Part shown: piece after piece, positions 14,268-56,403 of the stretch
How positions within the stretch are numbered: position 1 is the stretch's first letter
How the letters are laid out: the number at the start of each line of letters is the position of its first letter
Assembly: GCA_903828245.1 (NCBI GenBank)
Contig: CAIKLP010000082.1
Location: forward strand, 11,636-75,635
Length of the DNA: 64,000 nucleotides
Reading direction: 5' to 3'
From: an uncultured bacterium
GTDB lineage: Bacteria; Bacteroidota; Bacteroidia; Sphingobacteriales; Sphingobacteriaceae
Translations under genes and position numbers: made by a program
Notes under the pieces: model-generated
The model's input: the letters and a program-made list of their open reading frames with translations, nothing else
The model's database searches: none
Told to the model about the DNA's origin: nothing

Positions 14268-14326
14268 CTAAAATAATTTTTATGCGATTGCCACTATTTT
14301 CAAAGATAGAAAAATAAGGCAAAAGC

Positions 14327-17300
14327 TTAATTTAACAATACGAGCTTTTCTGTTTTTTCGGCACTTTGCCCATTTACTGTGCGAATTTTTAATCGGTATA
14401 CATAAACGCCTCTGCCTATTTTATCGCCAAAATCATCTTTCCCGTCCCAAAGAATGCCTGTTACTCTTGCGCCATTACCGCTTGTGTTTTGATTGATCGT
14501 TTTCACTAATTTGCCAGAAACGGTAAATATTTGTACTTGTACTTGTAAATTTTCGCTGCCACCATTGTGTTCAAACTGAAAATCTGTTTGCGTAGTAAAA
14601 GGATTAGGGTAATTCAACACATGTTGCAATTGCAAGCCTTCAGATGAAACCACTGTAAATGCAGTGTTACTTTCTGAAGAATTATTGAAAACATCCCAAG
14701 CTTTAATTTTTAAAGTATAATTTCCTGCGGCTAATTTATTGAAAGGATAATTAATTTCTCCTTCTTGATAGCTGTCTAATTTTGATTCGTAATATTGATT
14801 TAAATCGATTGTTTCCGACTTTGCATCTTTGGTAATAGTAGCGGTTAAATTATGTCCAATTCCATTCCCAACGGTGTTAATACCATTGGCGTCTTTTAAC
14901 TTCACCATTAAAGTTGGATTTTCGTTGGTGATGCCACCCATGACAAAGTTTTCGGAATTCAAATAGGTTTTAATTTCTGGTCCAATTTTATCCGAATTAC
15001 TAGTATTAGCAGAACCACCAATAATAATACTGTCAAATGATCCAATGGCTTCTTGTGCGCCCACTTGCGCATAGTAACTGAGTCTGCCAGCGCCTGCTTG
15101 ATACGAAATATCTTTTGGCACCACAAAACTAAAATCAAACGAGCCATTTGTTACGCTTACTTTACCTTTGTAAATAATATTTTTTTGAATGTCGAAATTT
15201 TGCACCTTACTACCATTCACACCTAAATCTTGTCCAAGCGTTTTCAGGGTCGTTTTTTTGTCAAAAATACTTGGGTATAAAACACCCGAAACATTGTTTA
15301 GTTTATTGCCATTTTGATCGGCAATATATCCTTTGATATTCACTAAACTCTGTGCTTTTAACGTATCTAAATTTTTAGTACTAATTAATTTTTCATTTAC
15401 TTTTTGGGTAACGATTCGGTATTGCGGAATTGCAAACGGCAAAGAAGGATCACCCAATAAAGAAAAATTTCTTTGATTAATAGTCAAGCCTAAACCGTTT
15501 AAGTTTTTGCTTTTTCTAAATAAATCACCAAGCGTATTATTACTACCAATATTCGTAGCATCAAAAAGGGCTTTGATAAAACTTTGGTTAATGGCTTCGT
15601 TTTCGTTTGCAAAAACCACACGGGTGGTGGTAAACATAGCAATGGCGCCACCTTCGGCGTTTAATAAGCATTGTTCTCCTGCCGATTGAAATGCAGGGTC
15701 GTCCCATCTGCTGACCGAACAAGTTGCGGTAAAAAGCAGTGGCATACTCGATTTGTTTTTCCAAGAACGAATATCATCTAGTGTTACAACCTTTTCGTGT
15801 GCAAGACCAACTTCTCCACCATGACCAATATAATTAATCACTAATGCGCCTGAAGCCATTGCTTGGTTAATGGCGTTGTTTACTTCTGGGTAGCGGCTTC
15901 CAGCAGGCGTACTAATTTGCGGATAGGCATCTAAATAAATTTTATCAATATTATAATTGTTGCTTAAGCTTCTAATGGTTCGGTAATGATTTTCGGCATG
16001 ATTTAAATGCAAGTTTCCATCTTGATCGTCGGCGACTAACACATATTTATTTTTCCAGTCGCCTCTTAAGCTGCTGTATAAAATTAATTTATCGACCATT
16101 TGTTTTGCTTCTAAAGCCGATTGAATAGGCATTCTGCCAACGGCTACATCTAAGGCAGCGGCACCATATACTGGATTTCCGTTGTAGTCAAAATCACCCT
16201 CGGTTTCGTCGAGCAAACCAAAAAAATCATCACTCACATAAGAGCCAAAAGGTGAGTGCGAATTCCTGCTTTCAAAAGAGCTTACAAAATTGGTATTGTT
16301 TTTTACATAACCAATATTATCGTAAGAGCCATCGCCAAATAGCAATAAATATTTTGGCATGTTTACTTCATTGGTACCAGCTCTATCGTAAAACATTTTC
16401 ACAAAATCTCTAATGGCACTTGCATCTTTAGCACCTGCACTAAATTCATTAAAAATTTTATCTTCTGTTATTACCAATACACGCAAATTATTATTCGTTC
16501 TTCTAAAGGCAGCCAAACGCTCTGCTTCAGCTAAAAAATCTGGTGCGGAAATAATAATAAGATCTGCAAAATCAAGTCCGTGTAAATCTTGGTTGTCTAT
16601 TTTTTCTAATATTTCGGGCTTTGGAAAATCTGTTCCTTTAAATACGGCATACTCTTTTAATAGCTCTGTTTTATTGATGAACTGTGCAAGGTTATTGTTT
16701 ACAGTATATAATTGATTGACTGGATTTGTTTTGTTGGTAATGTCCCAAATGGTTATTTCGCTTGGGTTAATGGCATCAATATTAAACTGACTAATTTTGC
16801 CTTTGCCAAAACTTTCAATGCTCCTAAAGTTTAAAAAATTTCCATTCAATTTTAATTTGCTGATGGCGTTAATTTGAATAAAATTTAAATATCCTGTTGC
16901 CGTTAAGTCTGGTTTGTTATAGGTAATATTGATAAGCAGGTTTTCAGATGGATTAGGAACCGTGGTGTAGCCAGTACTTACAATAGATCCATAGGAAGCA
17001 TCATAACTAAACTCTACACCGGAACAAATTAAGGTATTGGTTGTTGCGCCATTTGCTTTAATCACAAAAGAGCTATTGGCAGGATTTTGTGATCGACCAA
17101 TTAAATCTGCCCTAAATTTCACAGGTTTTCCGATAGCCAATGTTGGCAGCGTAAAATTAAAATCATAAGAAAGTAAATTACTGAATTCCTCTCCCCATCT
17201 TTCTCTACCACTTTTAATAGTTGAATTTACTCCCGTCGAATTATTTAATTCATGTAATTCGAAATAATTGTAGCTGTCTATAATTTTATTGGGCGCTTCA

Positions 17301-18193
17301 TTTAGGCTTTCTTGATTTGCAATTCTTTTACCTGGGCCAATGTCTGTCGTGATAAAATAATTACTTTTTAAAGTGTACGAATTGGTTGTATGCGAAAAAG
17401 TATTTTGAATGGTATCTGGATAAATATTATTTGGCCCAAATGCATAAAACAAAAGGTAATCTGTTTCATTAAATTTGCCATCGGCTTCTCCAAAAACTAA
17501 AATCGGATTTTCTGTTAAATCGTCGTATCGGCTCGCGCTGTTGATTTCTGGAAGTATGCCACCTCCATTTCCATATATGCGAATATTTCTAGGATCAATC
17601 GATTCTGGGTTGAGCCCCATCTTTTTTAATTCAGCAAAACCAATTTTATAAATACCATTATTAGCAATGCCTAGTTTAGTCCAGGTGCCATTTTGTAAAA
17701 TAGAATGAGCGGCATAATTTCTAGTATTTAAAATAGTTTTCTTTAACGCTGTAGTTAATAACTTTACTTCAAAAGAAACTAATCTTTCTATTTTTCCGGT
17801 TTCGGTATTTTTTCTGAAGGGTACAATGGAAACAAGTAAAGAAGGAATTTTCTTTTCAAAAATAACTGCCGCATGAATGCTTGCTGCCGCAGTTAATTGC
17901 GCAGTAATTAAGTTTTCGTATGCAATAACGGCAGGCTCGTAAATGGGATTTACTAAAACAGCATCGGTAAAATTGCCTGCAAACTTTTTATTCCAAATGG
18001 GCATGTGCTTCAGTTGCACATCAAAAATAGCCTCCTCAAATAGCTCCACTTTTTGCGACTTCGATTGGACGTCTGCGAATTCGTTGACACTCCAGTTTAG
18101 TTTATAGGAATTTAACTGCTGGGCCATGGTTAAACCCGAATGTGCAGAAAAGCCTAAAAAAAGGCAAAAAAAGAGGTATTTCTTGATTTTCAT
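14327..18193 (-). CDS. porU: Type IX secretion C-terminal-signal peptidase/sortase PorU
   Basis: 1288 aa with a signal peptide and a central gingipain-like (C25) region (LLLFGDGSYDN, INYIGHGG). It has its own type-A CTD (YPNPFTTQTDFQF...GVYVYRLKI). porU-porV synteny is present. Confidence 0.9.
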   Translation of the reverse strand: MKIKKYLFFCLFLGFSAHSGLTMAQQLNSYKLNWSVNEFADVQSKSQKVELFEEAIFDVQLKHMPIWNKKFAGNFTDAVLVNPIYEPAVIAYENLITAQLTAAASIHAAVIFEKKIPSLLVSIVPFRKNTETGKIERLVSFEVKLLTTALKKTILNTRNYAAHSILQNGTWTKLGIANNGIYKIGFAELKKMGLNPESIDPRNIRIYGNGGGILPEINSASRYDDLTENPILVFGEADGKFNETDYLLFYAFGPNNIYPDTIQNTFSHTTNSYTLKSNYFITTDIGPGKRIANQESLNEAPNKIIDSYNYFELHELNNSTGVNSTIKSGRERWGEEFSNLLSYDFNFTLPTLAIGKPVKFRADLIGRSQNPANSSFVIKANGATTNTLICSGVEFSYDASYGSIVSTGYTTVPNPSENLLINITYNKPDLTATGYLNFIQINAISKLKLNGNFLNFRSIESFGKGKISQFNIDAINPSEITIWDITNKTNPVNQLYTVNNNLAQFINKTELLKEYAVFKGTDFPKPEILEKIDNQDLHGLDFADLIIISAPDFLAEAERLAAFRRTNNNLRVLVITEDKIFNEFSAGAKDASAIRDFVKMFYDRAGTNEVNMPKYLLLFGDGSYDNIGYVKNNTNFVSSFESRNSHSPFGSYVSDDFFGLLDETEGDFDYNGNPVYGAAALDVAVGRMPIQSALEAKQMVDKLILYSSLRGDWKNKYVLVADDQDGNLHLNHAENHYRTIRSLSNNYNIDKIYLDAYPQISTPAGSRYPEVNNAINQAMASGALVINYIGHGGEVGLAHEKVVTLDDIRSWKNKSSMPLLFTATCSVSRWDDPAFQSAGEQCLLNAEGGAIAMFTTTRVVFANENEAINQSFIKALFDATNIGSNNTLGDLFRKSKNLNGLGLTINQRNFSLLGDPSLPFAIPQYRIVTQKVNEKLISTKNLDTLKAQSLVNIKGYIADQNGNKLNNVSGVLYPSIFDKKTTLKTLGQDLGVNGSKVQNFDIQKNIIYKGKVSVTNGSFDFSFVVPKDISYQAGAGRLSYYAQVGAQEAIGSFDSIIIGGSANTSNSDKIGPEIKTYLNSENFVMGGITNENPTLMVKLKDANGINTVGNGIGHNLTATITKDAKSETIDLNQYYESKLDSYQEGEINYPFNKLAAGNYTLKIKAWDVFNNSSESNTAFTVVSSEGLQLQHVLNYPNPFTTQTDFQFEHNGGSENLQVQVQIFTVSGKLVKTINQNTSGNGARVTGILWDGKDDFGDKIGRGVYVYRLKIRTVNGQSAEKTEKLVLLN

Positions 18194-18315
18194 AATTGCG
18201 ATAAGCCTAAAAATAAGGCTAATTCTTACAAAAAGCCCTAAATTTCATTAAAATTCCTGTTTAAACGGATATTAGTCTATAAAATTGCCTATTTTTATTC
18301 AATAAATATTTTATC

Positions 18316-18323
18316 TATATTTG
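18316..18323 (+). promoter_or_regulatory. -7 box TATATTTG upstream of the PorP/SprF-family gene
   Basis: Exact TAnnTTTG match 46 nt before ATG 18369. Confidence 0.4.
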
Positions 18324-18333
18324 ATGTTCTGAC

Positions 18334-18354
18334 TTAGAATAGCAGATATTCTAA
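18334..18354 (+). promoter_or_regulatory. 8-bp inverted repeat TTAGAATA-GCAGA-TATTCTAA in the PorP/SprF-family gene leader
   Basis: Read directly. It lies between the -7 box (18316-18323) and ATG 18369. Confidence 0.4.
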
Positions 18355-18368
18355 AATTGTTTTTACCT

Positions 18369-19340
18369 ATGTTAAAAAAGAAATTAGGACTATTATTTTT
18401 TGGTTTATTGGCCTTAACTGTTGTTAAAGCGCAAGACCCTCATTATTCGCAGTTTTACGCAGCGCCTCTTTACCTAAACCCTGGGTTTGCTGGTACTGCA
18501 GATGGCCCAAGGGTTATTTTAAACCACCGTAATCAATGGCCAGGAGTTAATAAAGCTTACCGAAACACCGCTTTCTCTTACGATCAATATATGCCAAATT
18601 TAAATGGTGGAATTGGTATTATGGTTGCAAATGATAATCAAGCAAATGGCGTTTTCAAAGCAACCCGTGTTACGGCTGTTTACTCTTACAATTTAAAAGT
18701 AAATAGAAAAGTAATGATTAAGCCAGCAATTTCCACTTCTTATTCAGCCAATTCGGTGAATACCAATAATTTAATTTGGGGATACGATGCACAAGGCACG
18801 CCAATTTATACTACTAACGACCCCTCTGCAGGTAATTTAAATGCCAGCTATTTGGATTTTGGAACAGGTGCTATCTTATTTACAGAGAACTTTTTTGGAG
18901 GTTTCTCTATTGATCATTTAACGGAACCCAATCAATCTTTTGATGGTGGAAATTCACCATTACCTCGCAAATACACTTTACATGCTGGTGGTTTTATTCC
19001 AGTTGGCAAAAAACAATATAATGCCTCTATTTCACCAAACATATTATACCAACAACAAGGGTCTAATAGTCAGTTGAATATTGGTATGTATTATAACAGG
19101 GGCCCAATTGTAGCAGGTACTTGGTATCGTTCTAGTTTTGTAAATGGCGATTCATTTATTGGCCTAGTTGGCTTTAAATACGATATTTACAAGTTTGGCT
19201 ATAGCTATGATATCATTACTTCAGAATTAAGAGCTTCTGCTTCTGGGGCACATGAATTTTCATTGTCAATCCAATTACAACAACCACCTTCGAAGGCAAA
19301 GGGTAAAAATTACAAACGTGTAAATTGCCCTTCTTTCTAA
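18369..19340 (+). CDS. PorP/SprF-family type IX secretion membrane protein
   Basis: AQDPHYSQFYAAPLYLNPGFAGT N-terminal signature after a signal peptide, with beta-barrel-like alternation. I prefer ATG at 18369 over the TTG at 18357. Confidence 0.85.
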   Translation: MLKKKLGLLFFGLLALTVVKAQDPHYSQFYAAPLYLNPGFAGTADGPRVILNHRNQWPGVNKAYRNTAFSYDQYMPNLNGGIGIMVANDNQANGVFKATRVTAVYSYNLKVNRKVMIKPAISTSYSANSVNTNNLIWGYDAQGTPIYTTNDPSAGNLNASYLDFGTGAILFTENFFGGFSIDHLTEPNQSFDGGNSPLPRKYTLHAGGFIPVGKKQYNASISPNILYQQQGSNSQLNIGMYYNRGPIVAGTWYRSSFVNGDSFIGLVGFKYDIYKFGYSYDIITSELRASASGAHEFSLSIQLQQPPSKAKGKNYKRVNCPSF

Positions 19341-19397
19341 GGATTTGAATAATAATAAATATATTTACTTCGTTAAATCTTAATTCAACACCGCTAA

Positions 19398-19414
19398 TTT
19401 GGCAATTTGCCAAA
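19398..19414. promoter_or_regulatory. 17-bp perfect palindrome TTTGGCAA-T-TTGCCAAA upstream of gldJ
   Basis: 8-bp arms are exact reverse complements around a single central T. It lies 30 nt before the gldJ ATG. Confidence 0.5.
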
Positions 19415-19443
19415 GAACGCAAAACAAATAAAATAACATACAG

Positions 19444-20859
19444 ATGAAAAAATTAATCAATTTTTCTGTTTACTTTTTGATGGCAGGTATGCTAGTTACT
19501 GTTTCATCATGTTCTGAGAAATCATCAAGAACAGGTTGGAAATACAACGACAAAAAGAACGGTGGCTTTCAAGTTTACAAAGACGCAGAACAAGCAACAG
19601 GTCCAGGTTTAATGTTCATTGAAGGTGGAACTTTTGTAATGGGTTCTATGGAGCAAGATTTAGCTTTCGATAATGACAATTACGAAAGAAGAGTTTCTGT
19701 TTCTTCTTTTTACATGGATGAAACCGAAGTAACAAACGTGGACTATTGTGAATATTTATACTGGTTAAAGCGAGTATATGGCGCAGATTATCCCGAAGTA
19801 TATGAAAAAGCATTGCCAGATACTTTAGCTTGGAGAAATCCACTTGGATTTAATGAGCCTTATGTAGATAACTACTTACGTCATCCAGCATACAAAAACT
19901 ATCCAGTAGTAGGTGTTTCTTGGACTCAAGCAAATGAATATTGCGCTTGGAGAACTGATCGCGTAAACGAAAGAATTTTAATTGATAAAGGAATCTTAAA
20001 AGATAATCCTAATCAAGTAAACGAAGATAACTTCAGTACACAAGCTTATCTTTCTGGCCAATACGAAGGGTTGGTTAAAAAGAATTTGAAAAACTTAGAT
20101 CCAAATGGCGAGCCAACTCGTCGTGTGCGTTTAGAAGATGGCATTTTATTGCCTAATTACCGTTTGCCAACAGAGGCAGAATGGGAATATGCAGCCAAAG
20201 CATTGAAAGGAAATTCGCAATTCGAAAATGTAAATCAAAAAAGACTATATGCTTGGAATGGTTTAACTACGCGTGATCCAGAAGGTAAAGGAAAAGGTAT
20301 TATGTATGCCAATTACAAAAGAGGTCGTGGAGATAACATGGGTGTTGCTGGTAATTTAAATGATAGCTACGACATTACTGGTCCAGTAAGAGCATTTGTT
20401 CCTAACGATTTTGGTTTATATAATATGGCAGGAAATGTGAGTGAGTGGGTGATGGATGTTTACCGTCCTTTGTCTCCAGAAGATAAAAGCGATTTCAATC
20501 CATTCCGTGGAAACGTATATACTAAACCTGCTACAGATGCCGATGGAAACATTGCAGAAAAAGACAGTTTAGGACATGTAAAAAGAGTGGTTGATTACGA
20601 TGCCTATGCAAGCCCTGATAAGCGCGGTGACATTGACGATGAGTCTATGTATGCTTATGGTGTAACCAGCATGATCAATGATAAAGCAAGAGTGTTTAAA
20701 GGTGGATCTTGGAACGATCGTGCTTATTTCTTGAATCCTGGCGTTCGCAGATTCATGGATGAAGATGCATCTACATCAGACATCGGATTCCGTTGCGCAA
20801 TGGTGAGATTAGGATCGCAAGACGCAAAGAAATTTAAAGCTAGAAACCCTAATAAATAA
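19444..20859 (+). CDS. gldJ: Gliding motility lipoprotein GldJ (FGE-sulfatase-like fold)
   Basis: Lipobox VSSC, then TGWKYNDKKNGGFQ and SUMF1/FGE-type segments (GGTFVMGS, YPVVGVSW, RGGSWND, IGFRC). Confidence 0.9.
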   Translation: MKKLINFSVYFLMAGMLVTVSSCSEKSSRTGWKYNDKKNGGFQVYKDAEQATGPGLMFIEGGTFVMGSMEQDLAFDNDNYERRVSVSSFYMDETEVTNVDYCEYLYWLKRVYGADYPEVYEKALPDTLAWRNPLGFNEPYVDNYLRHPAYKNYPVVGVSWTQANEYCAWRTDRVNERILIDKGILKDNPNQVNEDNFSTQAYLSGQYEGLVKKNLKNLDPNGEPTRRVRLEDGILLPNYRLPTEAEWEYAAKALKGNSQFENVNQKRLYAWNGLTTRDPEGKGKGIMYANYKRGRGDNMGVAGNLNDSYDITGPVRAFVPNDFGLYNMAGNVSEWVMDVYRPLSPEDKSDFNPFRGNVYTKPATDADGNIAEKDSLGHVKRVVDYDAYASPDKRGDIDDESMYAYGVTSMINDKARVFKGGSWNDRAYFLNPGVRRFMDEDASTSDIGFRCAMVRLGSQDAKKFKARNPNK

Positions 20860-43390: not shown

Positions 43391-44188
43391 ATGCAAGTTA
43401 GGGCAAAAAAGTTTTTAGGACAGCATTTTTTAACGGATAAAAACATTGCCCATAAAATTGTGAAGGCACTCCAAACCAAAGAAGGTATTGTGCTGAATGT
43501 ATTGGAAGTAGGCCCAGGTATGGGGGTTTTAACCGATTTTATGGTTACAGATCAATCCATATCTTTGAGTGTAATTGATATTGACAGAGAGTCGATTATT
43601 TACTTAGAAAAGAAATATCCTTTGTTAGGTGATCGAATTATTTCGGGCGATTTTTTAAACTTAGCTTTTGAGAAATTTGTGGAGCCGGGTAAAGATTTTG
43701 CCATCATTGGCAATTTCCCTTACAATATTTCTTCTCAGATTTTATTTAAAGTATTAGATAATAAAGAAAAAGTTAGCCAGGTTGTAGGCATGTTTCAAAA
43801 AGAAGTAGCAGAAAGAATTGTGGCTAAAGCAGGAACAAAAGCATACGGAATTTTAAGTGTGTTGATGCAAGCCGATTATGAAATTGAATATTTGTTTACT
43901 GTAAATCCGGGTGTTTTTAATCCGCCACCCAAAGTAAAATCTGCCGTAATTTCTGCTTTGCGAAATACCACAAATGTTTACGATGGTGCGAACGAAAATT
44001 TATTCAGAGAAATTGTAAAAGCTGCGTTTAACCAACGCAGAAAAACCTTAAGAAATTCCTTGCGAAAATATTTAACACCAGCCATTCAAGAAGAAAAAAT
44101 GTTTGATTTAAGGGCCGAAAGATTAAGTGTAAACGACTTTGTTTGGCTAACAAAATTAATTACAAAAGCAATTGATGAAAAAAAATAA
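43391..44188 (+). CDS. rsmA: 16S rRNA (adenine1518/1519-N6)-dimethyltransferase
   Basis: KKFLGQHFL, LEVGPGMGVLT and GNFPYNISS. Confidence 0.92.
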   Translation: MQVRAKKFLGQHFLTDKNIAHKIVKALQTKEGIVLNVLEVGPGMGVLTDFMVTDQSISLSVIDIDRESIIYLEKKYPLLGDRIISGDFLNLAFEKFVEPGKDFAIIGNFPYNISSQILFKVLDNKEKVSQVVGMFQKEVAERIVAKAGTKAYGILSVLMQADYEIEYLFTVNPGVFNPPPKVKSAVISALRNTTNVYDGANENLFREIVKAAFNQRRKTLRNSLRKYLTPAIQEEKMFDLRAERLSVNDFVWLTKLITKAIDEKK

Positions 44189-45134: not shown

Positions 45135-45165
45135 TCAAAATTCAGCTAATCAGCTGATTTTTAAT

Positions 45166-45205
45166 ACCATTTGAAAGCCCCTTTCAAATGGTTGCATTTT
45201 ATTTG
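45166..45205 (+). terminator. Strong intrinsic terminator after the dehydrogenase gene
   Basis: Perfect 12-bp stem ACCATTTGAAAG (45166-45177) / loop CCC / CTTTCAAATGGT (45181-45192), followed by TGCATTTTATTTG. Confidence 0.8.
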
Positions 45206-45297
45206 TAACATTTCTCTTACTAAAATTTGCATTTTATCTATTATTAACATTATATTTATTTTTAATAAAAAAATCAATAAACCCTAAGATCAACATT

Positions 45298-48200
45298 ATG
45301 ATGAGAAAGTTTTACGCATTCTTAGTCTTGTTAACAATCACAATTGGTCAAGCGGCATTCGCGCAAAGCGGTGCAGGCGAGCTAAGAGGAAAGGTTGTAG
45401 ATTCTAAGACTAAAGAGGGAGTGCCGTTTGCAGGAGTTATCGTAGAGTTAAATGGAACTCAGGTTGCTGCGCAACAAACAGACTTTGATGGCAATTATGT
45501 TATCAAACCAATCTCTCCAGGTAAGTATGATGTCCGCGTGGAAATCATAGGTTACAGTAAAAGGATTATTAACGGAGTTATCATTAACTCTAACAGACAA
45601 ACTTATGTCAATCCCGATATTGCTGCCAGTGTAACTAATATTCAAACGGTAACCGTAACAGATTACGCGAAACCTTTGATTGAAAGAGATAACAACATTG
45701 CAGGAGGAACTTTAACCGCAGAAGAAATTATAAAACTTCCAACTAGAAACATTAACTCTTTAGTATCAACAACTGCAGGTGTTTACCAAGCAGACGAAGG
45801 AGATGGTTTAGTAGTAAAAGGTTCGAGAGATGATGCAAACGATTATTATATTGATGGTGTAAAAGTTAGGGGAATTGCAGGTGTACCTCAAGGTGCGATA
45901 GAGCAAATTTCAGTTATAACAGGTGGTGTACCTGCTCAATACGGTGACGCAACGGGTGGTATTATTACCATTACTACCAAAGGACCTTCAAGAAAATTAA
46001 ATGGTGGCGTAGAAGCGGCTACTTCTGAATTCTTAGATGGTTACGGATATAATTTAGTAAGTGGAAACGTGAGTGGTCCATTATTAGTTCATAATAGAGG
46101 ACAAGAAGGCGAAAGACCAACTTTAGGTTTCTTTATCTCGGGCGAATTAGAAAGCAAGAGAGATCAAAACCCTTCTTATGTGGGTGCTTGGAAAGCGAAT
46201 GACAGCTGGTTGAAAAATGTTCGTGAGAACCCAGCAATTTTTAATTTCACCCCAGGATCTGCCAATCCAATTGTGGCAGTACCAAATGGCAACTATACAC
46301 AAAACGGACAATTAGACAAATCAAAAGCGCAAGATGGAAACGAAATTCGTAACATCAATTTTAATGCAAGTTTAGATTTTCAACCAAGTTTAAATAACAC
46401 TTTCAAATTTGGTTTTTCTGGTACGAGTCGTTATCAAAAAGTTTATAACAGGTCTAACATGTTATTTAATTCTGATAACAACCAAGAATTTACTAGAAAT
46501 ACTTATCGTGTGTATGGTCGTTATACGCAGAAGTTCTCTAGCAATGGCGAAGACGAGAGCAAAAATTTATTGAAAAATGCATATTATACTATACAAGCAG
46601 ATTTTTCTAGAGATAAAAGTGTTCAACAAGATCCAAATCACAAAGATAATTTGTTTAACTATGGTCATATTGGTAAATATGAAACACTTCGTGAAAATAG
46701 ATACGGCGCAATTGTACCAACAGACACTATCTTAACTTCTAATGGAGATACCGTGCGTTTCCAAAGTGTTGGAACCGGAACTAACGCAGGCACAAGAGAC
46801 ACTTCATTTTTATTTAATGCAGGTTCTGCTAATCCATATTTAGCAAATTATGTTTCTTCCTTGTATTCATTTATCAATACCGAATTTGGAGAGGGTAATA
46901 TTAATAGTATAACTACTTTTCAGGGTTTAGGTGGTATTGTAAATGGTAACAGCGCACCAAGTATTTACGGTGGGTTATTTGCACAGCCAGGTGCGGTTGC
47001 AAATTTGTATGAAGAAAACTTAAGAGATCAATATAGAATTTCTGCAATGGCTTCTGCCGATATTAAAAATCACTCGATACAAGTTGGTTTAGAATATGAG
47101 CAAAGAATTGAAAGCAGATTTAGAATCAACCCAAGATCTTTATGGACTACTATGCGTCAACAATCAAATGGTTATTTGACTTTAGACAAGTCTGCTATGA
47201 CTGTTGATACCAATGGATATTCAATCATCAACTTAAACGCTGCGGGTGTTTCTGTTTCGGGTGATACGGTAACTTGGAGCAGAGCCAATGATTATACAAA
47301 CGCTTCGGATTTCGCTAAAGCAGCTAGAATAAAATTAGGCTTAAATGCTGGAGATTATTTAGATGTAGATGCTTACGATCCTTCTACTTTCTCATTAGGT
47401 ATGATTGGTGCAGAAACTTTATTAGATAACTTAAATCCTGCTGGAGTAAGTTATACTTATAGTGGGTATAGTTTTGATGGAAAGAGAAGTACAGAAAATA
47501 TTACGCTCAATGATTTCTTTGATGATCAGAATCCTGATAAACAATGGAGGGTTGGAGCGTTCAGACCAGTATATATTGCTGGTTATATTCAAGATAAATT
47601 TACCTATAAAGATATTATCTTCAGTTTAGGGGTGCGTATCGATCGTTTCGATGCCAACCAACAAGTCTTGAAAGACAGATACTCTTTGTTTGATACAAGA
47701 AAAGCAGGTGAAATTGCTAATCGTCCTACAAATATTTCTGAAGATGCCGTTGTTTACGTTAACGACAAACAATTTGGTGGCGTTAGAGGCTACAGAATGG
47801 GAGATGTTTTCTATGATGCTGCAGGTAATGTTGTTCAAGACGTAACTGCTATTAAGAGTTCACAAGACGGTAAAATTACGCCATGGTTAACATCAGAATC
47901 ATTTGATGAAAATGGTAATACAAAAGTAGGCAATTCGAGCTTTAAAGATTATGCACCTCAAACGCAAATCATGCCGCGTATTGCTTTCTCTTTCCCTATT
48001 TCGGACGAAGCAAATTTCTTTGCTAACTACGACATCTTAACACAACGTCCACGTTCAAACGTGTTTAGTAATCCAATCAATTACTATTTATATTCGTTGA
48101 GTAAACAAAGTGTCACTTTGGTGAGTCCGGACATTGCGCCAGAAAAAACCATCAACTACCAATTAGGTTTCAAACAAAAAATCGGAAACACTTCGGCTTT

Positions 48201-49038
48201 AACTTTAACAGCTTTCTACAAAGAGTTAAAAGATAACTTCCAACAATTACAAATTGCAACGGCTTATCCAGCTTCTTATATTACTTTTAAAAACCAAGAT
48301 TTTGGAACCATTAAAGGTTTTACTTTGCAGTATGATTTAAGAAGAACTAATAACTTATCTGCAAACATTGCCTATACTTTACAATTTGCAAACGGTACTG
48401 GTTCTAATGCATCATCTGCTGGAAATTTAATTTCGAGTGGAGAGTCTGAGCCAATCAGAATTCCATTGCCTTTAGATTACGATCAAAGACATACTATTGT
48501 GGCTTCACTTGATTACCGTTATGGTATGGGTACAGATTACAATGGACCTGCTGCTTTGAAAGGTTTATTAGAAGGCTTCGGTTCTAACTTTATTATTAGA
48601 GCGGGTTCTGGAACACCTTATTCAAGAATTTCACAAGACATTGTACAAAACATTCTTTCTGCAGACGATACCCGTTTCAGAAGGTTAATAGGAGAGATCA
48701 ATGGTTCTCGTTTACCTTGGCAAATCAATATGGATTTAAGAATGGATAAAGATTTCCAATTAACTGCAAAAGCAGCCGATGGAAAAGGAAGAAGTTCATC
48801 ATTAAATTTATATGTATTGGTTCAAAATGTATTGAACGCAAAACGAATTGCAAGTTTATATCCAGCTACAGGTTTACCTGATGATGATGGTTATTTAACT
48901 TCACCGCAAGCGGTTCAACCATTAACTGAATTCCAAGATCCACAAGCCTACATGGACATGTATCATATTGCAGTGAATAATCCTGATAACTTTAAATTAC
49001 CAAGAGTAATTAGAATTGGTGCAATCTATAACTTCTAA
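45298..49038 (+). CDS. Oversized TonB-dependent-receptor-like outer-membrane barrel with carboxypeptidase-regulatory-like N-domain
   Basis: Signal peptide (AFAQ), then GKVVDSKTKEGVPFAGVIV...FDGNYVI...GKYDV (CarboxypepD_reg-like). TonB-box-like QTVTVTD sits at 45643-45663. A plug-like segment follows (NSLVSTTAGV...VKGSR...YYIDGVKV...ISVITGGVPAQYGDATGGIITITTK), then a long beta-rich region ending GAIYNF. Confidence 0.85.
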   Translation: MMRKFYAFLVLLTITIGQAAFAQSGAGELRGKVVDSKTKEGVPFAGVIVELNGTQVAAQQTDFDGNYVIKPISPGKYDVRVEIIGYSKRIINGVIINSNRQTYVNPDIAASVTNIQTVTVTDYAKPLIERDNNIAGGTLTAEEIIKLPTRNINSLVSTTAGVYQADEGDGLVVKGSRDDANDYYIDGVKVRGIAGVPQGAIEQISVITGGVPAQYGDATGGIITITTKGPSRKLNGGVEAATSEFLDGYGYNLVSGNVSGPLLVHNRGQEGERPTLGFFISGELESKRDQNPSYVGAWKANDSWLKNVRENPAIFNFTPGSANPIVAVPNGNYTQNGQLDKSKAQDGNEIRNINFNASLDFQPSLNNTFKFGFSGTSRYQKVYNRSNMLFNSDNNQEFTRNTYRVYGRYTQKFSSNGEDESKNLLKNAYYTIQADFSRDKSVQQDPNHKDNLFNYGHIGKYETLRENRYGAIVPTDTILTSNGDTVRFQSVGTGTNAGTRDTSFLFNAGSANPYLANYVSSLYSFINTEFGEGNINSITTFQGLGGIVNGNSAPSIYGGLFAQPGAVANLYEENLRDQYRISAMASADIKNHSIQVGLEYEQRIESRFRINPRSLWTTMRQQSNGYLTLDKSAMTVDTNGYSIINLNAAGVSVSGDTVTWSRANDYTNASDFAKAARIKLGLNAGDYLDVDAYDPSTFSLGMIGAETLLDNLNPAGVSYTYSGYSFDGKRSTENITLNDFFDDQNPDKQWRVGAFRPVYIAGYIQDKFTYKDIIFSLGVRIDRFDANQQVLKDRYSLFDTRKAGEIANRPTNISEDAVVYVNDKQFGGVRGYRMGDVFYDAAGNVVQDVTAIKSSQDGKITPWLTSESFDENGNTKVGNSSFKDYAPQTQIMPRIAFSFPISDEANFFANYDILTQRPRSNVFSNPINYYLYSLSKQSVTLVSPDIAPEKTINYQLGFKQKIGNTSALTLTAFYKELKDNFQQLQIATAYPASYITFKNQDFGTIKGFTLQYDLRRTNNLSANIAYTLQFANGTGSNASSAGNLISSGESEPIRIPLPLDYDQRHTIVASLDYRYGMGTDYNGPAALKGLLEGFGSNFIIRAGSGTPYSRISQDIVQNILSADDTRFRRLIGEINGSRLPWQINMDLRMDKDFQLTAKAADGKGRSSSLNLYVLVQNVLNAKRIASLYPATGLPDDDGYLTSPQAVQPLTEFQDPQAYMDMYHIAVNNPDNFKLPRVIRIGAIYNF

Positions 49039-49043
49039 GAGAA

Positions 49044-52000
49044 ATGAAAATGAAAAATATATCATATAAACTATCTGCTTTTGTTGGTGCAAGTCTATTA
49101 ACGCTTGCATTAGGAGTAGGACAAGTAAAGGCCGATGTATACAAAGGCCCAGGAGCGGGGACACCAACTTATCCTCGCACACAAATGAGGGCTGCAAATA
49201 TTTGCGACCCAGCATCCTCACAAATTGATTTAGATGTTAACAATGTGCGTTGTAGATTGTTAAACGGAGGAGATATGTGGTGGGATATTTTTGCAACTAA
49301 AAATGCAAGATACGAAGTACCAAAAGTAGATCCAGGAGGAAGAAGTATTCATGCTTCTTTTGCATCTGGTTTATGGTTTGGTGGTGTTGATGGTGGTGAA
49401 CAATTAAAAACCGCTGGTCAAACCTATCGTCAAACAGGTTTAGACTTTTGGCCAGGACCATTAGATACCTTAACAGCTACCATTACTAAAGATGATTGTA
49501 AAGCATGGGATAAACAATACAGTGTGTTGCGTCCAGAAATTACAGAATATGTATCAAGCGGAGTTGTTTCAGAAAACATTGCTAAATGGCCAGGTAACGG
49601 GGATGCAAGTAAAGGACAAGCGCAATTTATGGCGCCATTCTTTGATGCAGACGGCGATGGTATTTACAATACAGCTAGTGGCGACTATCCAACTTTAGAT
49701 CCTAATGAATTAGGTGCAAAGCCAGACCAAATGATTTGGTGGGTATACAACGATAAAGGTGGTGTGCATACTGCTTATCCGGGTGGTGAGCCCATTGGAT
49801 TAGAAGTACACGCTTTAGCTTTTGCATTCAAAACTTCGAACGAATTAAATAACATGACTTTCTATAAGTATTCTATTTACAACCGTTCAAGCACTCCATT
49901 ATTTAGAACCTACTTTGGTGTATTTACCGATTCGGATTTAGGTGGTGCAGACGACGACTTTGTAGGTTGTAACATGGCATTAGTAGATAGCGACGGACCT
50001 TCGGGCCCACTTCCTCCAAAAAGAAGAAGTTTTGGTTACACATATAATGCAGACAATGACGACGCCGATGGAGCTTCTCCAGGATATGGTGCAACGCCTC
50101 CAGCTTTTGGTATCGATTATTTCCGTGGTCCTAAAGATGAAAATGGAAATGAATTACCGATGTCTACTTTTATGTTCTTTACCAACCAAGGTCAAGCAGG
50201 TATCAACTCAGATCCATCAAACGCAGTTCAATTATACCGTTACTTAAGAGGCTATTGGGCAGATGGGCAACCATTAACTTATGGCCAAGCAACGGGTAGA
50301 GGTGGAACGGATACTTGTTTATATGCATTCCCTGGTTCAACAGATCCAGACGGTCGTGCACCATGGGACGAAACCAGTACACCTGGTGATAGACGTATGG
50401 TTCAAGCTTCAGGTCCATTTACTTTACAACCAGGCGCAGTAAACGAAGTAATTATAGGTGCTGTTTATGGCCGTGCAGATAATGGCGACAATAAAGCATC
50501 TATCTCGGCTGCATTAATAGGTGATGACAAAGCACAAGTTTTATTTGACAATGCGTTTAAATTGGCAAATGGTCCAGAGCCGGTAAACATGGTTATTGTT
50601 CCAGGCGACAAGAGAATTAAAATCATGTTAGAGGGAACTACTAAATGTGAAAGGTACAATGCAAGAGAATTAGATAACGAAGATTTGAAATTATACAATT
50701 ACAAATTCCAAGGTTATCGTATCTATCAAGTAAAAGACCAAACTGTTTCGGTTAGTAATTTAAATGATATTTCTAAAGCAATTGAAATTTTACAAGTAGA
50801 TATAAAAGATAAAATTTCAAGAGTAATCAATAAATCTTTTGATGCAAATACACAAAACACGCAAGCGAAAATTGAAATTGAGGGAGAAAACAAAGGAGTG
50901 GCACATTACTTTGATGTAACAACTGATCAATTCGCTACTAGCTACGATGGTAAATTTATCAACGGAAATGATTATTACTTTATTTGTATTCCATATGCAG
51001 TTGCAGATTCTGCAGTGTTCACCAAATATTTACCATCTAGAACAAGTACCAAAGTGGTGAAAGTAATTCCTAACCGCCAAGTTTTAAACGGAAAAATTAA
51101 TGGTATCGCAGACGACGGTTTAGCAGTAACGAGATTTGCTGGTGCAGGTAATGGCGGCGCAGTGTTAGATTTAGATCCAACATCTGAATCGGATATTATT
51201 GCTGGTGTTTTAAAAGGAGGAACAAAACCTAAAGCAAAGTATGCGGTAAGCAAAGGACCAGTAACTATTAATGTTTACAATCCTACCATTTTAGAAAAAG
51301 CAAATTACCGCTTAGAATTTACCGCAGACATGAAGAGTTATGTATTATTAAACGATGATACCAATGACACTTTAATGGTTTCGGATACTACTTATAATAC
51401 CAGTACTACTTTAAATGAAAATGAGCAAGCCGCACAAATTCGTACGTACGAAATAGGCTCGAACGGGCTACCTCGTTTAGTGAATGCAAAACCACTTGGG
51501 TTTTCTATTAAAGTGAACAATACTTTAAGTGCTCCGGGTACAGCTACTGCCATTGAAAACAATAATAACTTCTTAGAAGCCTCTATTGTTTATGCAGATA
51601 AATCTAAAAATTGGCTATCAGGTTACAGCGGATTAGCAAGTAATGCAACACCTGCCGTTGCTGGTTGGATAGAAAATAATGCAACCGTAGACCCGAACGA
51701 AGTGTATAGCAATGTATTAAGTGGTACTTGGGCGCCTTATAAATTACTAAGGAATCCAACTTCAACAGATTTAAAGAAAACAAGTCCTTTATTCGATCAA
51801 GTAACAAAAGGTACGGCTTATAAATTTGATTCAATCGGAAGTTACGATATCGTGTTTACTAGTGATACCACCAAATGGTCAGAATGTATTGTAGTAGAAT
51901 CATCTGTTGGTGGAACCATTGAGCCTTCTAAAAACAATGAAAAGAGAATGAATTTGAGACAGGACAACATTGGTTACGGTATTGGTAAAAGTAAATTCCC

Positions 52001-52781
52001 TGGTTATGCAATTAACTTAGAAAACGGAGAACGCGTAAATATTTTCTTTGCAGAAGCTTCGGCTTTAGCAGACGAAAATGGCGCCGATATGAAATGGAAT
52101 CCAACCTCAAATACTACTTTCTTGAATCGTGGAGGTCGTCACCATGTTTATGTAACGCGTCGTGCGTACGATGGTTGTAATCAATTATGGAATTTGTTAA
52201 GTAAAAATGGTACTGATTTCAATAACCCAACTTATGCAGATCAAAAAACAGCATACTTCATGGTTGATTGGGTTACGGTTCCAGTATTAACATCGGGTAA
52301 GCAATTATTATCAACAGATGTAAAAGTAAGGTTGCGCGTTTCTAAACCATATGCAAAATTCGCAACAGAGGCAACAGGAACAGGTGTGCCAGTTTATAAA
52401 TTCAATACGCAAAACTCTGTTAGATCGGCATTCGATAACGTGGCAGAGGATAATAAAAATGCATTAGCATTAATCAATGTAGTACCAAATCCTTACTATG
52501 CGTATTCTACTTACGAACCAGACAGAAACAGTAACAGAGTTAGGTTTACTAATTTGCCTGCAAAAGCAACAGTAACAGTATATACAACAAATGGCATGTT
52601 GGTTCGCAGAATGACAAAATCTGATGCGGCTACCACTAGTATTGAATGGGATTTAAGAAATTCAAATAGAATTCCAATTGCAACCGGAGTATATATCATT
52701 CACATTGATTGCCCTTTAATTGGCGAGAAAACGCTGAAATGGTTAGGTGTAATGAGACCTGTTGATTTTACAAACTTTTAA
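49044..52781 (+). CDS. Large secreted protein of unknown function with divergent T9SS type-A CTD-like C-terminus
   Basis: 1245 aa with a signal peptide (LALGVGQVKA/D) and a DADGDGIY Ca-binding-like motif. The last ~100 aa (52470-52778) read VPNPYYAYS...ATVTVYTTNGMLVRRM...IEWDLRN...ATGVYIIHI, which parallels the PorU CTD in this window. It starts 5 nt after the upstream stop. Confidence 0.8.
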   Translation: MKMKNISYKLSAFVGASLLTLALGVGQVKADVYKGPGAGTPTYPRTQMRAANICDPASSQIDLDVNNVRCRLLNGGDMWWDIFATKNARYEVPKVDPGGRSIHASFASGLWFGGVDGGEQLKTAGQTYRQTGLDFWPGPLDTLTATITKDDCKAWDKQYSVLRPEITEYVSSGVVSENIAKWPGNGDASKGQAQFMAPFFDADGDGIYNTASGDYPTLDPNELGAKPDQMIWWVYNDKGGVHTAYPGGEPIGLEVHALAFAFKTSNELNNMTFYKYSIYNRSSTPLFRTYFGVFTDSDLGGADDDFVGCNMALVDSDGPSGPLPPKRRSFGYTYNADNDDADGASPGYGATPPAFGIDYFRGPKDENGNELPMSTFMFFTNQGQAGINSDPSNAVQLYRYLRGYWADGQPLTYGQATGRGGTDTCLYAFPGSTDPDGRAPWDETSTPGDRRMVQASGPFTLQPGAVNEVIIGAVYGRADNGDNKASISAALIGDDKAQVLFDNAFKLANGPEPVNMVIVPGDKRIKIMLEGTTKCERYNARELDNEDLKLYNYKFQGYRIYQVKDQTVSVSNLNDISKAIEILQVDIKDKISRVINKSFDANTQNTQAKIEIEGENKGVAHYFDVTTDQFATSYDGKFINGNDYYFICIPYAVADSAVFTKYLPSRTSTKVVKVIPNRQVLNGKINGIADDGLAVTRFAGAGNGGAVLDLDPTSESDIIAGVLKGGTKPKAKYAVSKGPVTINVYNPTILEKANYRLEFTADMKSYVLLNDDTNDTLMVSDTTYNTSTTLNENEQAAQIRTYEIGSNGLPRLVNAKPLGFSIKVNNTLSAPGTATAIENNNNFLEASIVYADKSKNWLSGYSGLASNATPAVAGWIENNATVDPNEVYSNVLSGTWAPYKLLRNPTSTDLKKTSPLFDQVTKGTAYKFDSIGSYDIVFTSDTTKWSECIVVESSVGGTIEPSKNNEKRMNLRQDNIGYGIGKSKFPGYAINLENGERVNIFFAEASALADENGADMKWNPTSNTTFLNRGGRHHVYVTRRAYDGCNQLWNLLSKNGTDFNNPTYADQKTAYFMVDWVTVPVLTSGKQLLSTDVKVRLRVSKPYAKFATEATGTGVPVYKFNTQNSVRSAFDNVAEDNKNALALINVVPNPYYAYSTYEPDRNSNRVRFTNLPAKATVTVYTTNGMLVRRMTKSDAATTSIEWDLRNSNRIPIATGVYIIHIDCPLIGEKTLKWLGVMRPVDFTNF

Positions 52782-52806
52782 TTGTTGAACGAATTAAAAA
52801 TCAGAT

Positions 52807-53853
52807 ATGAAAAATATTTTTAAAATAGTAAGTACTACAATATTAGGCGCTTTATTACCTGCAATTTTAATTGCAGGTAATGGCGAGCGCGCAGGTACTG
52901 GTGGCGCAACAGAATTATTGATTAACCCTTGGGCGCGTAGTGCCGGATTTGGTGGTATCAATACGGCAATGGCTAAAGGGGTAGAAGCCATGAATGTCAA
53001 CGTTGGCGGGTTAGCTTATACTAAAAACACCGAAGTAGTTTTCTCAAGAACAACTTGGTTAAAAGGTTCTGATGTAAACATCAGCGCATTTGGATTGAGT
53101 CAAAAAGTAGGAACTTCTGGCGTATTAGGTATCAGTATCATGTCAATGGATTTTGGTGATATCGATGTAACGACCAACGATAGACCAGAAGGAAATATTG
53201 GAAAATTCTCTCCTAAATTAGTGAACTTTGCATTAGCGTATTCGAAAGAATTCTCTAACAGTATTCACGGTGGTATTTTGGTGAGAGGCATTCAGCAATC
53301 AATTGCAGATTTAAATTCGTCAGGATTTTCTTTAGATGCAGGTATTCAATATACGGGTGGCGATAACGACGAATTAAAATTCGGTATTGCATTGCGTAAC
53401 ATTGGTCCAGATATGGTGATGCAAGGTGACGGTTTAATGGCAACATTTACAGATCCTACTTTGCCATTCGCAGTAGAAGGATATCGTAAATCACAAGCTT
53501 ATCAAATTCCTTCTTTATTAAACATGGGTTTATCGTACGATTTATATTTTCAAAAAGACCATCGTATAACGCCAATGTTTAATTTTACATCTAACTCATT
53601 CTCTAACGATTTAATCGGTTTAGGATTAGAGTATAGCTACAAAAATTATTTAATGTTTAGAGGAGCTTACAATAGCGAGAAAAATATTGACATTGCGGCA
53701 ACTTCTCCAAGTGTTTATAATGGCTTAACTTTTGGAAGTACCATTGAATTGCCTTTAAATGATAAAGGCTCAACATTTGCAATTGATTATTCTTATAGAG
53801 TAACACATGTTTATGATGGAACACATGCCATTTCTGCGCGTATAACATTATAA
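52807..53853 (+). CDS. PorV/PorQ-family outer-membrane barrel protein
   Basis: 348 aa with a signal peptide. GGATELLINPWARSAGFGGINTAM parallels the PorV motif FLLIGPDSRAGAMGDGGVAS. Beta-barrel-like alternation with a terminal aromatic-rich strand. Confidence 0.75.
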   Translation: MKNIFKIVSTTILGALLPAILIAGNGERAGTGGATELLINPWARSAGFGGINTAMAKGVEAMNVNVGGLAYTKNTEVVFSRTTWLKGSDVNISAFGLSQKVGTSGVLGISIMSMDFGDIDVTTNDRPEGNIGKFSPKLVNFALAYSKEFSNSIHGGILVRGIQQSIADLNSSGFSLDAGIQYTGGDNDELKFGIALRNIGPDMVMQGDGLMATFTDPTLPFAVEGYRKSQAYQIPSLLNMGLSYDLYFQKDHRITPMFNFTSNSFSNDLIGLGLEYSYKNYLMFRGAYNSEKNIDIAATSPSVYNGLTFGSTIELPLNDKGSTFAIDYSYRVTHVYDGTHAISARITL

Positions 53854-53877
53854 CATTATAATTTAATTTTTTAATAA

Positions 53878-53916
53878 AAGAAGGCCGTATTTATATACGG
53901 TCTTCTTTTATTTTAT
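53878..53916 (+). terminator. Strong intrinsic terminator after the three-gene OM operon
   Basis: 15-bp stem AAAAGAAGGCCGTAT (53878-53892) / loop TTAT / ATACGGTCTTCTTTT (53897-53911) with one G-U pair, followed by ATTTT. Confidence 0.8.
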
Positions 53917-55422: not shown

Positions 55423-56403
55423 GTGAAACTATTTCTACAAAGATACAAGAAGCTTTTAGTAAACCTACTGAAAGTTAGCATACTGCTCTTAACAATTGCC
55501 TATGTGGCAATTGAATTAATGCACAGAAATGCCTTGGAAAATATAGGGCAAATTACCGCTCAAATACAATCTGGACAAAAGCTATATCTATTAGTATTGG
55601 TAGTCATATTGATGCCCTTGAATGTTTTTTTAGAATCAAGTAAATGGCAATTTGCCGCTAGCAAATTAGAAAAACTTTCCATAAGGCGTGCCATTGCTTC
55701 GGTTCTTGCAGGCATGAGCATTGGCATATTTACGCCAAATAATATTGGCGATTATGGCGGGCGTATTTTATATTTAAGCGAAGGCAATCGCATTAAGGGA
55801 GTGCTGGTTAATTTTATTTCCTCTATTGGGCAAATGGTGATTACTTTACTTGCAGGCTTTATTGCTTTTTATTTTTATGCGCCGCAATATGTAAACCAAG
55901 ACCCGCTGATCAATTACATATTATTGTATTTCGTTTTATTTTTAATGGTAGTGGTCTTGTATTTATTTTTAAATATAGGACGTATTACCTATTACTTATC
56001 TTCATTGGGCTGGTTCAAAAAGCATGTCGAACTACTTGCTGTTTTTGCTTTATTTAAAAATATCGATTTAATAAAAATTTTAGCTTGGTCCGCCCTGCGT
56101 TACCTTGTTTTTTCTTCGCAATATTTACTGTTATTGCATTTCTTTATTCCAAGCATGGCTATTAGCGAAACGTATATGATGATTACCTTAATATTCTTTA
56201 CGCAGTCTATCTTGCCTGGTTTTGCTATTACAGAGTTGGGGGTGCGTTCTGGCATTGCGGTGTTTTTTCTCGGACATTTAAGCGCAGATACCATAGGCAT
56301 ATTAGCAGCAGCATTTTCTATATGGAGTGTAAATGTTATCTTGCCTTCCTTGGTAGGAACTTATTTTATCATCAAAGCAAAATTTATCGGTGCAAATTCT
56401 TAA
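55423..56403 (+). CDS. Flippase-like polytopic membrane protein (UPF0104 / LPG-synthase-TM-type)
   Basis: 326 aa with ~8 predicted TM helices and the basic N-terminus typical of this family. The GTG start is forced by a stop immediately upstream. No catalytic motif. Confidence 0.65.
   Translation: MKLFLQRYKKLLVNLLKVSILLLTIAYVAIELMHRNALENIGQITAQIQSGQKLYLLVLVVILMPLNVFLESSKWQFAASKLEKLSIRRAIASVLAGMSIGIFTPNNIGDYGGRILYLSEGNRIKGVLVNFISSIGQMVITLLAGFIAFYFYAPQYVNQDPLINYILLYFVLFLMVVVLYLFLNIGRITYYLSSLGWFKKHVELLAVFALFKNIDLIKILAWSALRYLVFSSQYLLLLHFFIPSMAISETYMMITLIFFTQSILPGFAITELGVRSGIAVFFLGHLSADTIGILAAAFSIWSVNVILPSLVGTYFIIKAKFIGANS

Follow-up and report, generated by a model that had tools for sequence, protein, structure and literature searches.

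Within a 64,000-nucleotide stretch of DNA from an uncultured Sphingobacteriaceae bacterium (contig CAIKLP010000082.1; the whole stretch is referred to here as the window), three adjacent genes on the forward strand encode a TonB-dependent transporter (gene 1), a large secreted protein that ends in a type IX secretion system (T9SS) C-terminal domain (CTD) (gene 2), and a barrel of the PorV/PorQ family (gene 3; Table 1). We propose that this triad is an outer-membrane module found across the Bacteroidota, in which the gene 2 protein would be delivered by the T9SS, held by its CTD on the gene 3 barrel, and act as the capture partner of the gene 1 transporter; we give this reading a probability of about 0.5. 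A CTD that is retained on the barrel is favored because the domain is the best conserved part of gene 2, because it resembles the CTDs of PorZ and PorU, and because the three proteins co-vary.

Table 1 Features of the three-gene locus and of the T9SS/gliding cluster in the same window.
Feature	Position	Strand	Evidence or remarks
Hairpin resembling an intrinsic terminator (stem 12 bp, loop 3 nt) with T-rich tail	45166..45192	+	sequence
AT-rich leader, 105 nt, presumed promoter region of the triad	45193..45297	+	inferred from sequence
Gene 1, TonB-dependent transporter, 1246 aa	45298..49038	+	Pfam, NCBIfam, AlphaFold2 and Foldseek
Gene 1 CarboxypepD_reg domain, aa 29-105	45382..45612	+	Pfam PF13620, 41.3 bits (cut-off 32.3)
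Gene 1 TonB box QTVTVTD, aa 116-122	45643..45663	+	strand pattern conserved in homologues
Gene 1 plug domain, aa 138-222	45709..45963	+	Pfam PF07715, 35.2 bits (cut-off 23.9)
Gene 2, secreted protein rich in beta structure, from a large unnamed family, 1245 aa	49044..52781	+	sequence, family search, AlphaFold2
Gene 2 CTD, T9SS type-A-like, of the PorU/PorZ kind, aa ~1140-1245	52461..52778	+	BLASTP, profile models, conservation
Gene 2 conserved 8-residue tail RPVDFTNF after the last CTD strand, aa 1238-1245	52755..52778	+	family alignment
Gene 3, PorV/PorQ-family outer-membrane barrel, 348 aa	52807..53853	+	NCBIfam NF033709
Intrinsic-terminator-like hairpin, ~15-16 bp including one G-U pair, then T-run	53878..53911	+	sequence
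PorV	13020-14267	-	T9SS/gliding cluster
PorU, long form with extra N-terminal domain NF052318, 1288 aa	14327-18193	-	T9SS/gliding cluster
PorP/SprF-family barrel, divergent	18357-19340	+	T9SS/gliding cluster
GldJ	19444-20859	+	453.9 bits, just below the full-length cut-off of 458.2; short-form model passed

An earlier note, made by reading the sequence, had aligned the last ~100 residues of gene 2 by eye with the CTD of the PorU encoded in the same window. Indeed, BLASTP recovers this match (E 1e-7, 27% identity); on sequence, the domain is clearly homologous to T9SS CTDs, and the protein is probably secreted through the T9SS. The gene 2 CTD fits the C-terminal ends of the PorZ model (E 1.6e-7; profile positions 671-739 of 757) and the PorU model (E 1.5e-6; positions 988-1075 of 1095) better than it fits the generic type-A model, and all 27 CTDs taken from the gene 2 family match the PorZ and PorU models and, at E <= 0.1, TIGR04183, the best PorZ match reaching E 5.7e-11. 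In our single control, an ordinary type-A cargo protein from a related locus (L001), TIGR04183 scores 33.6 bits and neither the PorZ nor the PorU model matches.

The CTD is also the most conserved part of gene 2, with a mean majority fraction of 0.72 compared to 0.55 for the rest of the protein. Over 51 triads, its mean pairwise divergence is 0.43, close to the 0.41 of GreA; that of the gene 2 body is 0.57. Such slow divergence, in the part of the protein conserved above everything else, would suit a lasting binding partner more than a signal to be discarded, and we suggest that the gene 2 CTD remains uncleaved and is held by the gene 3 barrel. Beyond the last CTD strand lies a short tail with the pattern RPxD[LF]xx[F/Y], which is kept in all 50 family members compared and ends in F or Y in 50 of 50; the window's PorU has no such tail and ends ...EKLVLLN. 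This tail might be a docking peptide for the barrel of gene 3 or gene 1. It also resembles the beta-signal of outer-membrane proteins, although gene 2 itself does not encode a barrel.

The barrel encoded by gene 3 belongs to the family whose members hold such domains. It scores 137.9 bits against the PorV-family model NF033709 (PorV_fam, cut-off 90) and falls far below the cut-offs of the equivalog models for PorQ (NF033711, 72.6 bits, cut-off 220), PorV (NF033710, 61.1 bits, cut-off 250) and PorV2 (34.4 bits, cut-off 325); the window's genuine PorV scores 491 bits against NF033710. Six gene 3 orthologues behave in the same way (108-143 bits with NF033709, 40-66 bits with the PorQ model), and PorP/SprF models give the triad barrel only ~14 bits. 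Gene 3 shares 25% identity with the window's PorV, and its N-terminal ELLINPWARSAGFGG aligns with FLLIGPDSRAGAMGDG of that protein, bearing out the resemblance to a PorV motif that had been noticed by eye. Its orthologues are ~50% identical between orders and carry the NCBI name 'PorV/PorQ family protein'. By these scores, gene 3 forms a separate clade of the PorV/PorQ family and is not PorV, PorQ or PorV2.

Two other identities for genes 2 and 3 were considered and set aside. As a duplicated PorU-PorV pair, they fail in the body of the large protein, where the CTD alone aligns; when the gene 2 family profile is compared to the window's PorU with hhalign, 53 columns of the CTD are all that aligns, which also removes the gene 2 body as a PorU homologue. 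As this lineage's PorZ and PorQ, they score too low against the equivalog models; the NCBIfam PorZ match to gene 2 is confined to the end of the profile and leaves the body unmatched.

Gene 1 is a true TonB-dependent transporter, with a plug, a TonB box and the classical importer fold. The N-terminal CarboxypepD_reg-like domain, the plug, the TonB-box-like QTVTVTD and the terminal F that had been read from the sequence are all upheld: Pfam scores for both domains exceed their cut-offs, the C-terminal residue is F, and QTVTVTD falls on an alternating strand, [E/T]-V-x-[V/I]-x-x-Y, that is conserved in an alignment of 48 gene 1 homologues. The box is similar to the DTxxVTA boxes of BtuB, FhuA and FepA. 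An AlphaFold2 model of residues 108-1246 (predicted local distance difference test score (pLDDT) 83, predicted TM-score 0.82) matches PhuR, Cir, FpvA, FptA, FhuA, BtuB and Bacteroides XusA in Foldseek with E-values of 1e-25 to 1e-20 and TM-scores, normalised to the target, of 0.6-0.79; the barrel fold is judged by these structural matches. Because 1139 residues were modelled compared to the 576-809 of the matched solved transporters, gene 1 carries ~450 extra residues, consistent with the earlier impression of an oversized barrel, and these are probably extracellular loop material for the most part. At the level of profiles, the barrel region gives weak matches to NCBIfam siderophore-receptor models; PF00593 is recorded for most gene 1 homologues and does not match the window's protein at E <= 0.1, and the SusC/RagA model is absent among its NCBIfam matches at the same threshold. 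Taken together, the profile searches agree with the earlier family calls for all three proteins: a transporter, a T9SS CTD and a PorV/PorQ-family barrel.

The body of gene 2 is less easily placed. The protein begins with a type I signal peptide (residues 1-30) without a lipobox cysteine; it is a Sec-exported protein and not a lipoprotein. It contains DxDxDG-type acidic loops, which may be calcium sites, and two invariant cysteines, which may form a disulfide. Upstream of the C-terminus it matches no Pfam or NCBIfam family, and yet the family is large: a word-indexed search returned at least 1,761 matches, and with the CTD removed from the query we found 6,622 representatives of 50%-identity clusters at E <= 1e-3 and 1,880 at E <= 1e-30. 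Among 32 divergent relatives scanned with Pfam, the core matches nothing, and a few carry inserted Ig, cadherin or BNR domains. Looking up the clusters for cultured hosts yielded only entries named 'hypothetical protein' from metagenome-assembled genomes.

The AlphaFold2 model of gene 2 (residues 50-1245, pLDDT 83.7) is mostly beta. A fold search with this model returned weak, partial beta-sandwich matches and no convincing neighbor: GH116, GH94, an exo-arabinanase and a copper amine oxidase, with TM-scores <=0.26 and root-mean-square deviations of 10-17 Å. A match to PorZ in the same search probably stems from the CTD. We do not take these matches as a sign that gene 2 is a glycoside hydrolase; the model has too few helices for the (alpha/alpha)6 catalytic domain of such enzymes. 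The earlier note had recognised no catalytic motif in gene 2, and the Pfam, NCBIfam and fold searches likewise give no catalytic fold. Sequence searches of solved structures with all three proteins and with the gene 2 family profile produced no meaningful matches.

The three genes travel together. In a scan of one genome per species we found at least 582 loci, and the best 80 of these all come from Bacteroidota metagenome-assembled genomes. The lineages include Chitinophagales, Flavobacteriales (Crocinitomicaceae, Cryomorphaceae), Bacteroidales (Lentimicrobiaceae and rumen lineages), Sphingobacteriales and Saprospiraceae, and come from very different habitats. We scored the arrangement with tblastn and family hidden Markov models on 82 related loci. 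The exact series gene 1, gene 2, gene 3 is present in 68, six have the same order with an extra copy of gene 1, gene 2 or gene 3, and three are cut by a contig end; in the other five, neither gene 1 nor gene 3 lies close by, and gene 2 is represented by a lone paralogue or by two tandem gene 2-like open reading frames (ORFs). Conservation of the neighborhood, which the earlier note had named as a point on which its proposal could fall, is thus found in 74 of the 82 loci. The order is retained down to 32% identity and persists where the flanks differ (as in L002 and L006). More usually greA and HIT follow on the 3' side, where ruvC is encoded on the opposite strand; the 5' side often has ksgA and a serA-like gene. 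Since the order is kept across taxonomic orders amid shared flanks, the triad is ancient and vertically inherited.

The three proteins also co-vary. Correlations between their distance matrices are 0.67-0.83 among the triad compared to 0.23-0.62 with greA and HIT, and partial correlations of 0.56-0.73 persist among the three proteins once greA and HIT are regressed out; this co-variation is consistent with co-evolution and is no proof of contact.

Variation in copy number was seen at some of these loci. Most genomes have a single triad locus; in some, genes of the triad are present in extra copies, or a lone gene 2 paralogue lies at another site. Positions 258-7969 of L001 hold two gene 1 transporters in tandem, a second gene 2 copy lies 3' of gene 3 in L006, L044, L064 and L066, and L054 has two copies of gene 3. 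In genomes with a second or lone gene 2, the CTD is kept and there is usually one gene 3; a single gene 3 beside extra gene 2 copies fits a shared anchor. The lone paralogues (L008, L037, L051, L071 and L079) are ~1340-1355 residues long and have kept the CTD; the gene 2 match starts at 7001 in each of these loci, with the ORFs beginning at ~6850-6980, and no transporter or PorV-like gene lies within 7 kb. Nor do these five share a consistent context, as their neighbors encode TPR, OMP_b-brl_2, GT2, a Kelch protein with a T9SS CTD, and an M28 peptidase. The Kelch-repeat protein (L071, 5697-6866; Por_Secre_tail, 28.8 bits) is encoded directly upstream of the lone paralogue. L008, with its lone gene 2, and L010, with a full triad, come from the same metagenome-assembled genome.

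The triad in the window is compact, with gaps of 5 nt between genes 1 and 2 and 25 nt between genes 2 and 3; the ORF coordinates, strand and spacing given earlier are exact. The hairpins on either side had been described as the two strongest terminators in the window. When we scanned the whole window for hairpins with a T-run behind them, this held for the downstream one, the most stable T-tailed hairpin of all (-20.9 kcal/mol), but not for the upstream one: the 45-nt stretch that contains it, together with a second small hairpin, reaches ~-14.8 kcal/mol and ranks ~17th. Both are terminator-like in sequence; the upstream hairpin would terminate the serA-like gene and set the triad apart, and the downstream hairpin would close the three-gene unit ahead of greA. 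A consensus terminator scan of the region returned 7 sites compared to 7.4 expected in shuffled sequence, showing no excess, and the exact Bacteroidota -7 motif (TAnnTTTG) was not found when the leader was inspected by eye. The GC content is flat at ~36% over the window; the triad region is therefore not an island. No Rfam family or tRNA was found in the window.

Several other features were observed around the triad. A perfect 6-bp palindromic hairpin (TCAGCTAATCAGCTGA) at 45142-45157, terminator-like on either strand, lies between the stop codon of the serA-like gene and the 12-bp hairpin, giving tandem hairpins. Further upstream, the ksgA/rsmA ORF overlaps the 2-hydroxyacid dehydrogenase gene (serA/pdxB-like, listed with a TTG start) by 17 nt at 44172-44188, and pdxA is divergent, upstream of the ksgA/rsmA ORF; this arrangement recalls the pdxA-ksgA linkage of enterobacteria. 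Downstream, a 326-aa ORF with a GTG start (55423-56403, +) has no NCBIfam match, and its coding sequence contains, at ~55946-55990, a T-tailed hairpin with a 19-bp stem that ranks second in stability in the window (-20.1 kcal/mol).

Secretion by the T9SS is plausible in this organism and has precedent elsewhere. PorU, PorV, PorP/SprF and GldJ are encoded together at 13020-20859, so a T9SS is available. The CTDs of PorU and PorZ stay attached to PorV and PorQ, and it has been suggested that such CTDs may be shielded from cleavage by cognate PorV-like barrels (PMC10202324). Type B cargo depends on genetically linked cognate PorP/SprF shuttles (PMC9143113; PMC12618676), and the latter describes type A CTDs as being, in general, cleaved after handling by PorV. 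T9SS function in Porphyromonas gingivalis requires PG0534, a protein whose annotation is TonB-dependent receptor (PMC5445135). In papers on the beta-barrel assembly machinery of Bacteroidota, PorV is mentioned by analogy only.

The earlier note knew of no experimental characterisation of such a triad, and we found none in the literature; the arrangement was nevertheless already visible in an annotation. In Rhodothermus marinus, an alginate utilisation locus is annotated with a gene for a TonB-dependent receptor, followed by hypA, for a T9SS type A sorting-domain protein, and then hypB, for a PorV/PorQ family protein; hypA and hypB are listed as hypothetical and unstudied (PMC9530828); this is the sole published trace that we found. 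Judging from that annotation, the locus would put the same gene order in a nutrient-uptake setting.

How might the triad work? The best-supported reading is the one that the earlier note put forward, whose predictions were borne out wherever computation could probe them. In the proposed mechanism, gene 2 would be exported by Sec and then cross the outer membrane through the ordinary T9SS translocon, after which its CTD would be passed, uncut, to the gene 3 barrel. The protein would then stay on the cell surface by way of gene 3, as PorZ does by way of PorQ and PorU by way of PorV, and would be placed on top of, or next to, the bulky portion of the gene 1 transporter that faces the outside. There it could capture or present a ligand, which gene 1 would import with energy from TonB. 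Gene 2 would thus take the role that SusD-type and other surface lipoproteins have in other Bacteroidota transporters.

Several observations weigh against this proposal. Neither sequence nor Pfam and fold searches reveal a recognisable ligand-binding or catalytic fold in gene 2. The full-length protein scores 18.5 bits against TIGR04183, under the cut-off of 23, and the isolated CTD scores 23.5 bits, just at it; the Pfam model Por_Secre_tail (PF18962) does not match the window's gene 2 protein and matches one of the 32 divergent members. The likeness of the CTD to PorZ and PorU is measured against that one cargo protein, and whether a CTD is retained cannot be read from sequence. Mirror-tree correlations can also come from shared history or shared rates with no contact involved, and as proxies of species distance greA and HIT are short and noisy. 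The evidence that the three proteins touch is indirect, and the physical complex with its capture-and-import role is a proposal. Finally, genes for an inner-membrane transporter or a catabolic enzyme are absent from the surroundings of the triad, and its conserved neighbors are housekeeping genes, which fit a core envelope function as well as nutrient import.

In a different account, gene 3 anchors or shuttles gene 2 but the module serves a core envelope or T9SS-related function, with gene 1 as a platform or accessory barrel comparable to PG0534. Such a role would suit a triad that is usually a single ancient locus amid ksgA, the serA-like gene, greA, HIT and ruvC, that has no linked catabolic or inner-membrane transport genes, and that occurs in lineages of very different habitats; with PG0534, there is a precedent for a barrel of transporter type among T9SS components (PMC5445135). 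On the other hand, the TonB box, plug and full importer fold of gene 1 are hard to explain without TonB-driven transport, and the same order is found inside an alginate utilisation locus in Rhodothermus (PMC9530828). We consider this account unlikely.

Rather improbable, in our judgment, is that gene 2 is an ordinary T9SS cargo whose CTD is cut by PorU, so that the protein is released or attached to lipopolysaccharide, with gene 3 as a paralogous shuttle and gene 1 importing the product or ligand of gene 2 without a stable complex. The type-A-like character of the CTD is what such a cargo would have, as type A domains are generally PorV-handled and cleaved (PMC12618676). Yet the CTD is the slowest-evolving part of gene 2, changing at a rate like that of GreA, it resembles the retained domains of PorZ and PorU and not generic cargo, and a dedicated PorV-family barrel is nearly always encoded directly downstream. 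That the three genes are adjacent through conserved order alone, with unrelated functions, is very improbable: greA, HIT and ksgA are likewise syntenic without a functional link, but the triad has gaps of 5 and 25 nt inside a terminator-bounded unit, keeps its order at 32% identity even where the flanks differ, and co-varies above the flanking genes, and the pairing of a T9SS CTD with a PorV-family barrel is a specific match.

TonB-dependent uptake in the Bacteroidota is understood almost wholly through pairs of a barrel and a lipoprotein such as SusCD, and the T9SS is seen as a pathway that delivers enzymes, adhesins and the components of its own attachment complex. Each part of the triad is of a known kind; the combination is uncharacterised, its middle protein has no family model, and the module is widespread. 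If gene 2 is indeed held on gene 3 as a partner of gene 1, the T9SS would build part of an import machine, linking T9SS secretion to TonB-dependent import. A third cognate pair of CTD and PorV-like barrel would allow CTD retention and barrel specificity to be compared between pairs, and a family that spans over 6,000 sequence clusters, and for which neither Pfam nor NCBIfam has a model, would gain its first functional handle. Because the module sits amid core genes in many lineages that are abundant in freshwater, the sea, soil, groundwater and the gut, its substrate may be of ecological importance to them. More tentatively, and leaning slightly against it ourselves, we raise the possibility that the triad holds, besides PorU-PorV and PorZ-PorQ, a third, ancient pairing of a retained CTD with a PorV-like barrel, which would serve not secretion as such but the mounting of a non-lipidated, T9SS-delivered capture subunit on a TonB-dependent transporter; this would be a general alternative to SusC/SusD, common among uncultured Bacteroidia and with an echo in polysaccharide loci of Rhodothermus.

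Known systems resemble the triad in part. PG0534, like gene 1, has the character of a transporter barrel, and its function is bound up with the T9SS, but it is smaller (92 kDa compared to ~138 kDa for gene 1, calculated from sequence length), and the comparison is one of descriptions; no linkage to a T9SS cargo or PorV-like gene is reported for it (PMC5445135). The type B pair SprB-SprF shares the genetic linkage of a T9SS substrate to the barrel that receives and anchors it (PMC9143113; PMC12618676), whereas the triad has a type-A-like CTD and a barrel of the PorV/PorQ family, with PorP/SprF models scoring as low as noted above. Closest in order is the tonB-hypA-hypB set of R. marinus (2,805, 2,181 and 1,056 nt; PMC9530828), which is annotated in the same sequence of genes; it belongs to another phylum, its first two proteins are shorter, it lies among alginate lyases, and it is compared here by annotation only.

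PorU-PorV and PorZ-PorQ provide the model for anchoring: a large surface protein keeps its CTD on a barrel of the PorV/PorQ family (PMC10202324), as we presume for gene 2, and in the window PorU is followed by PorV in the same order as gene 2 by gene 3. In contrast to these pairs, the gene 2 body matches neither PorU nor the PorZ body, gene 3 fails the cut-offs for PorV, PorQ and PorV2, and the unit includes a TonB-dependent transporter. The model for import is SusC/SusD, together with XusA-XusB (PDB 9gbc). Unlike in those systems, gene 1 has no SusC/RagA match and carries ~450 extra residues, the triad lacks both a SusD-like gene and a lipoprotein, a type I signal peptide and a T9SS CTD are found on the partner, and the third gene encodes a putative barrel anchor. 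What the triad has in common with them is a TonB-dependent barrel with an N-terminal CarboxypepD_reg-type domain, encoded beside a gene for a large surface partner, a gene 1 model that matches XusA among others, and a presumed logic of capture followed by import.

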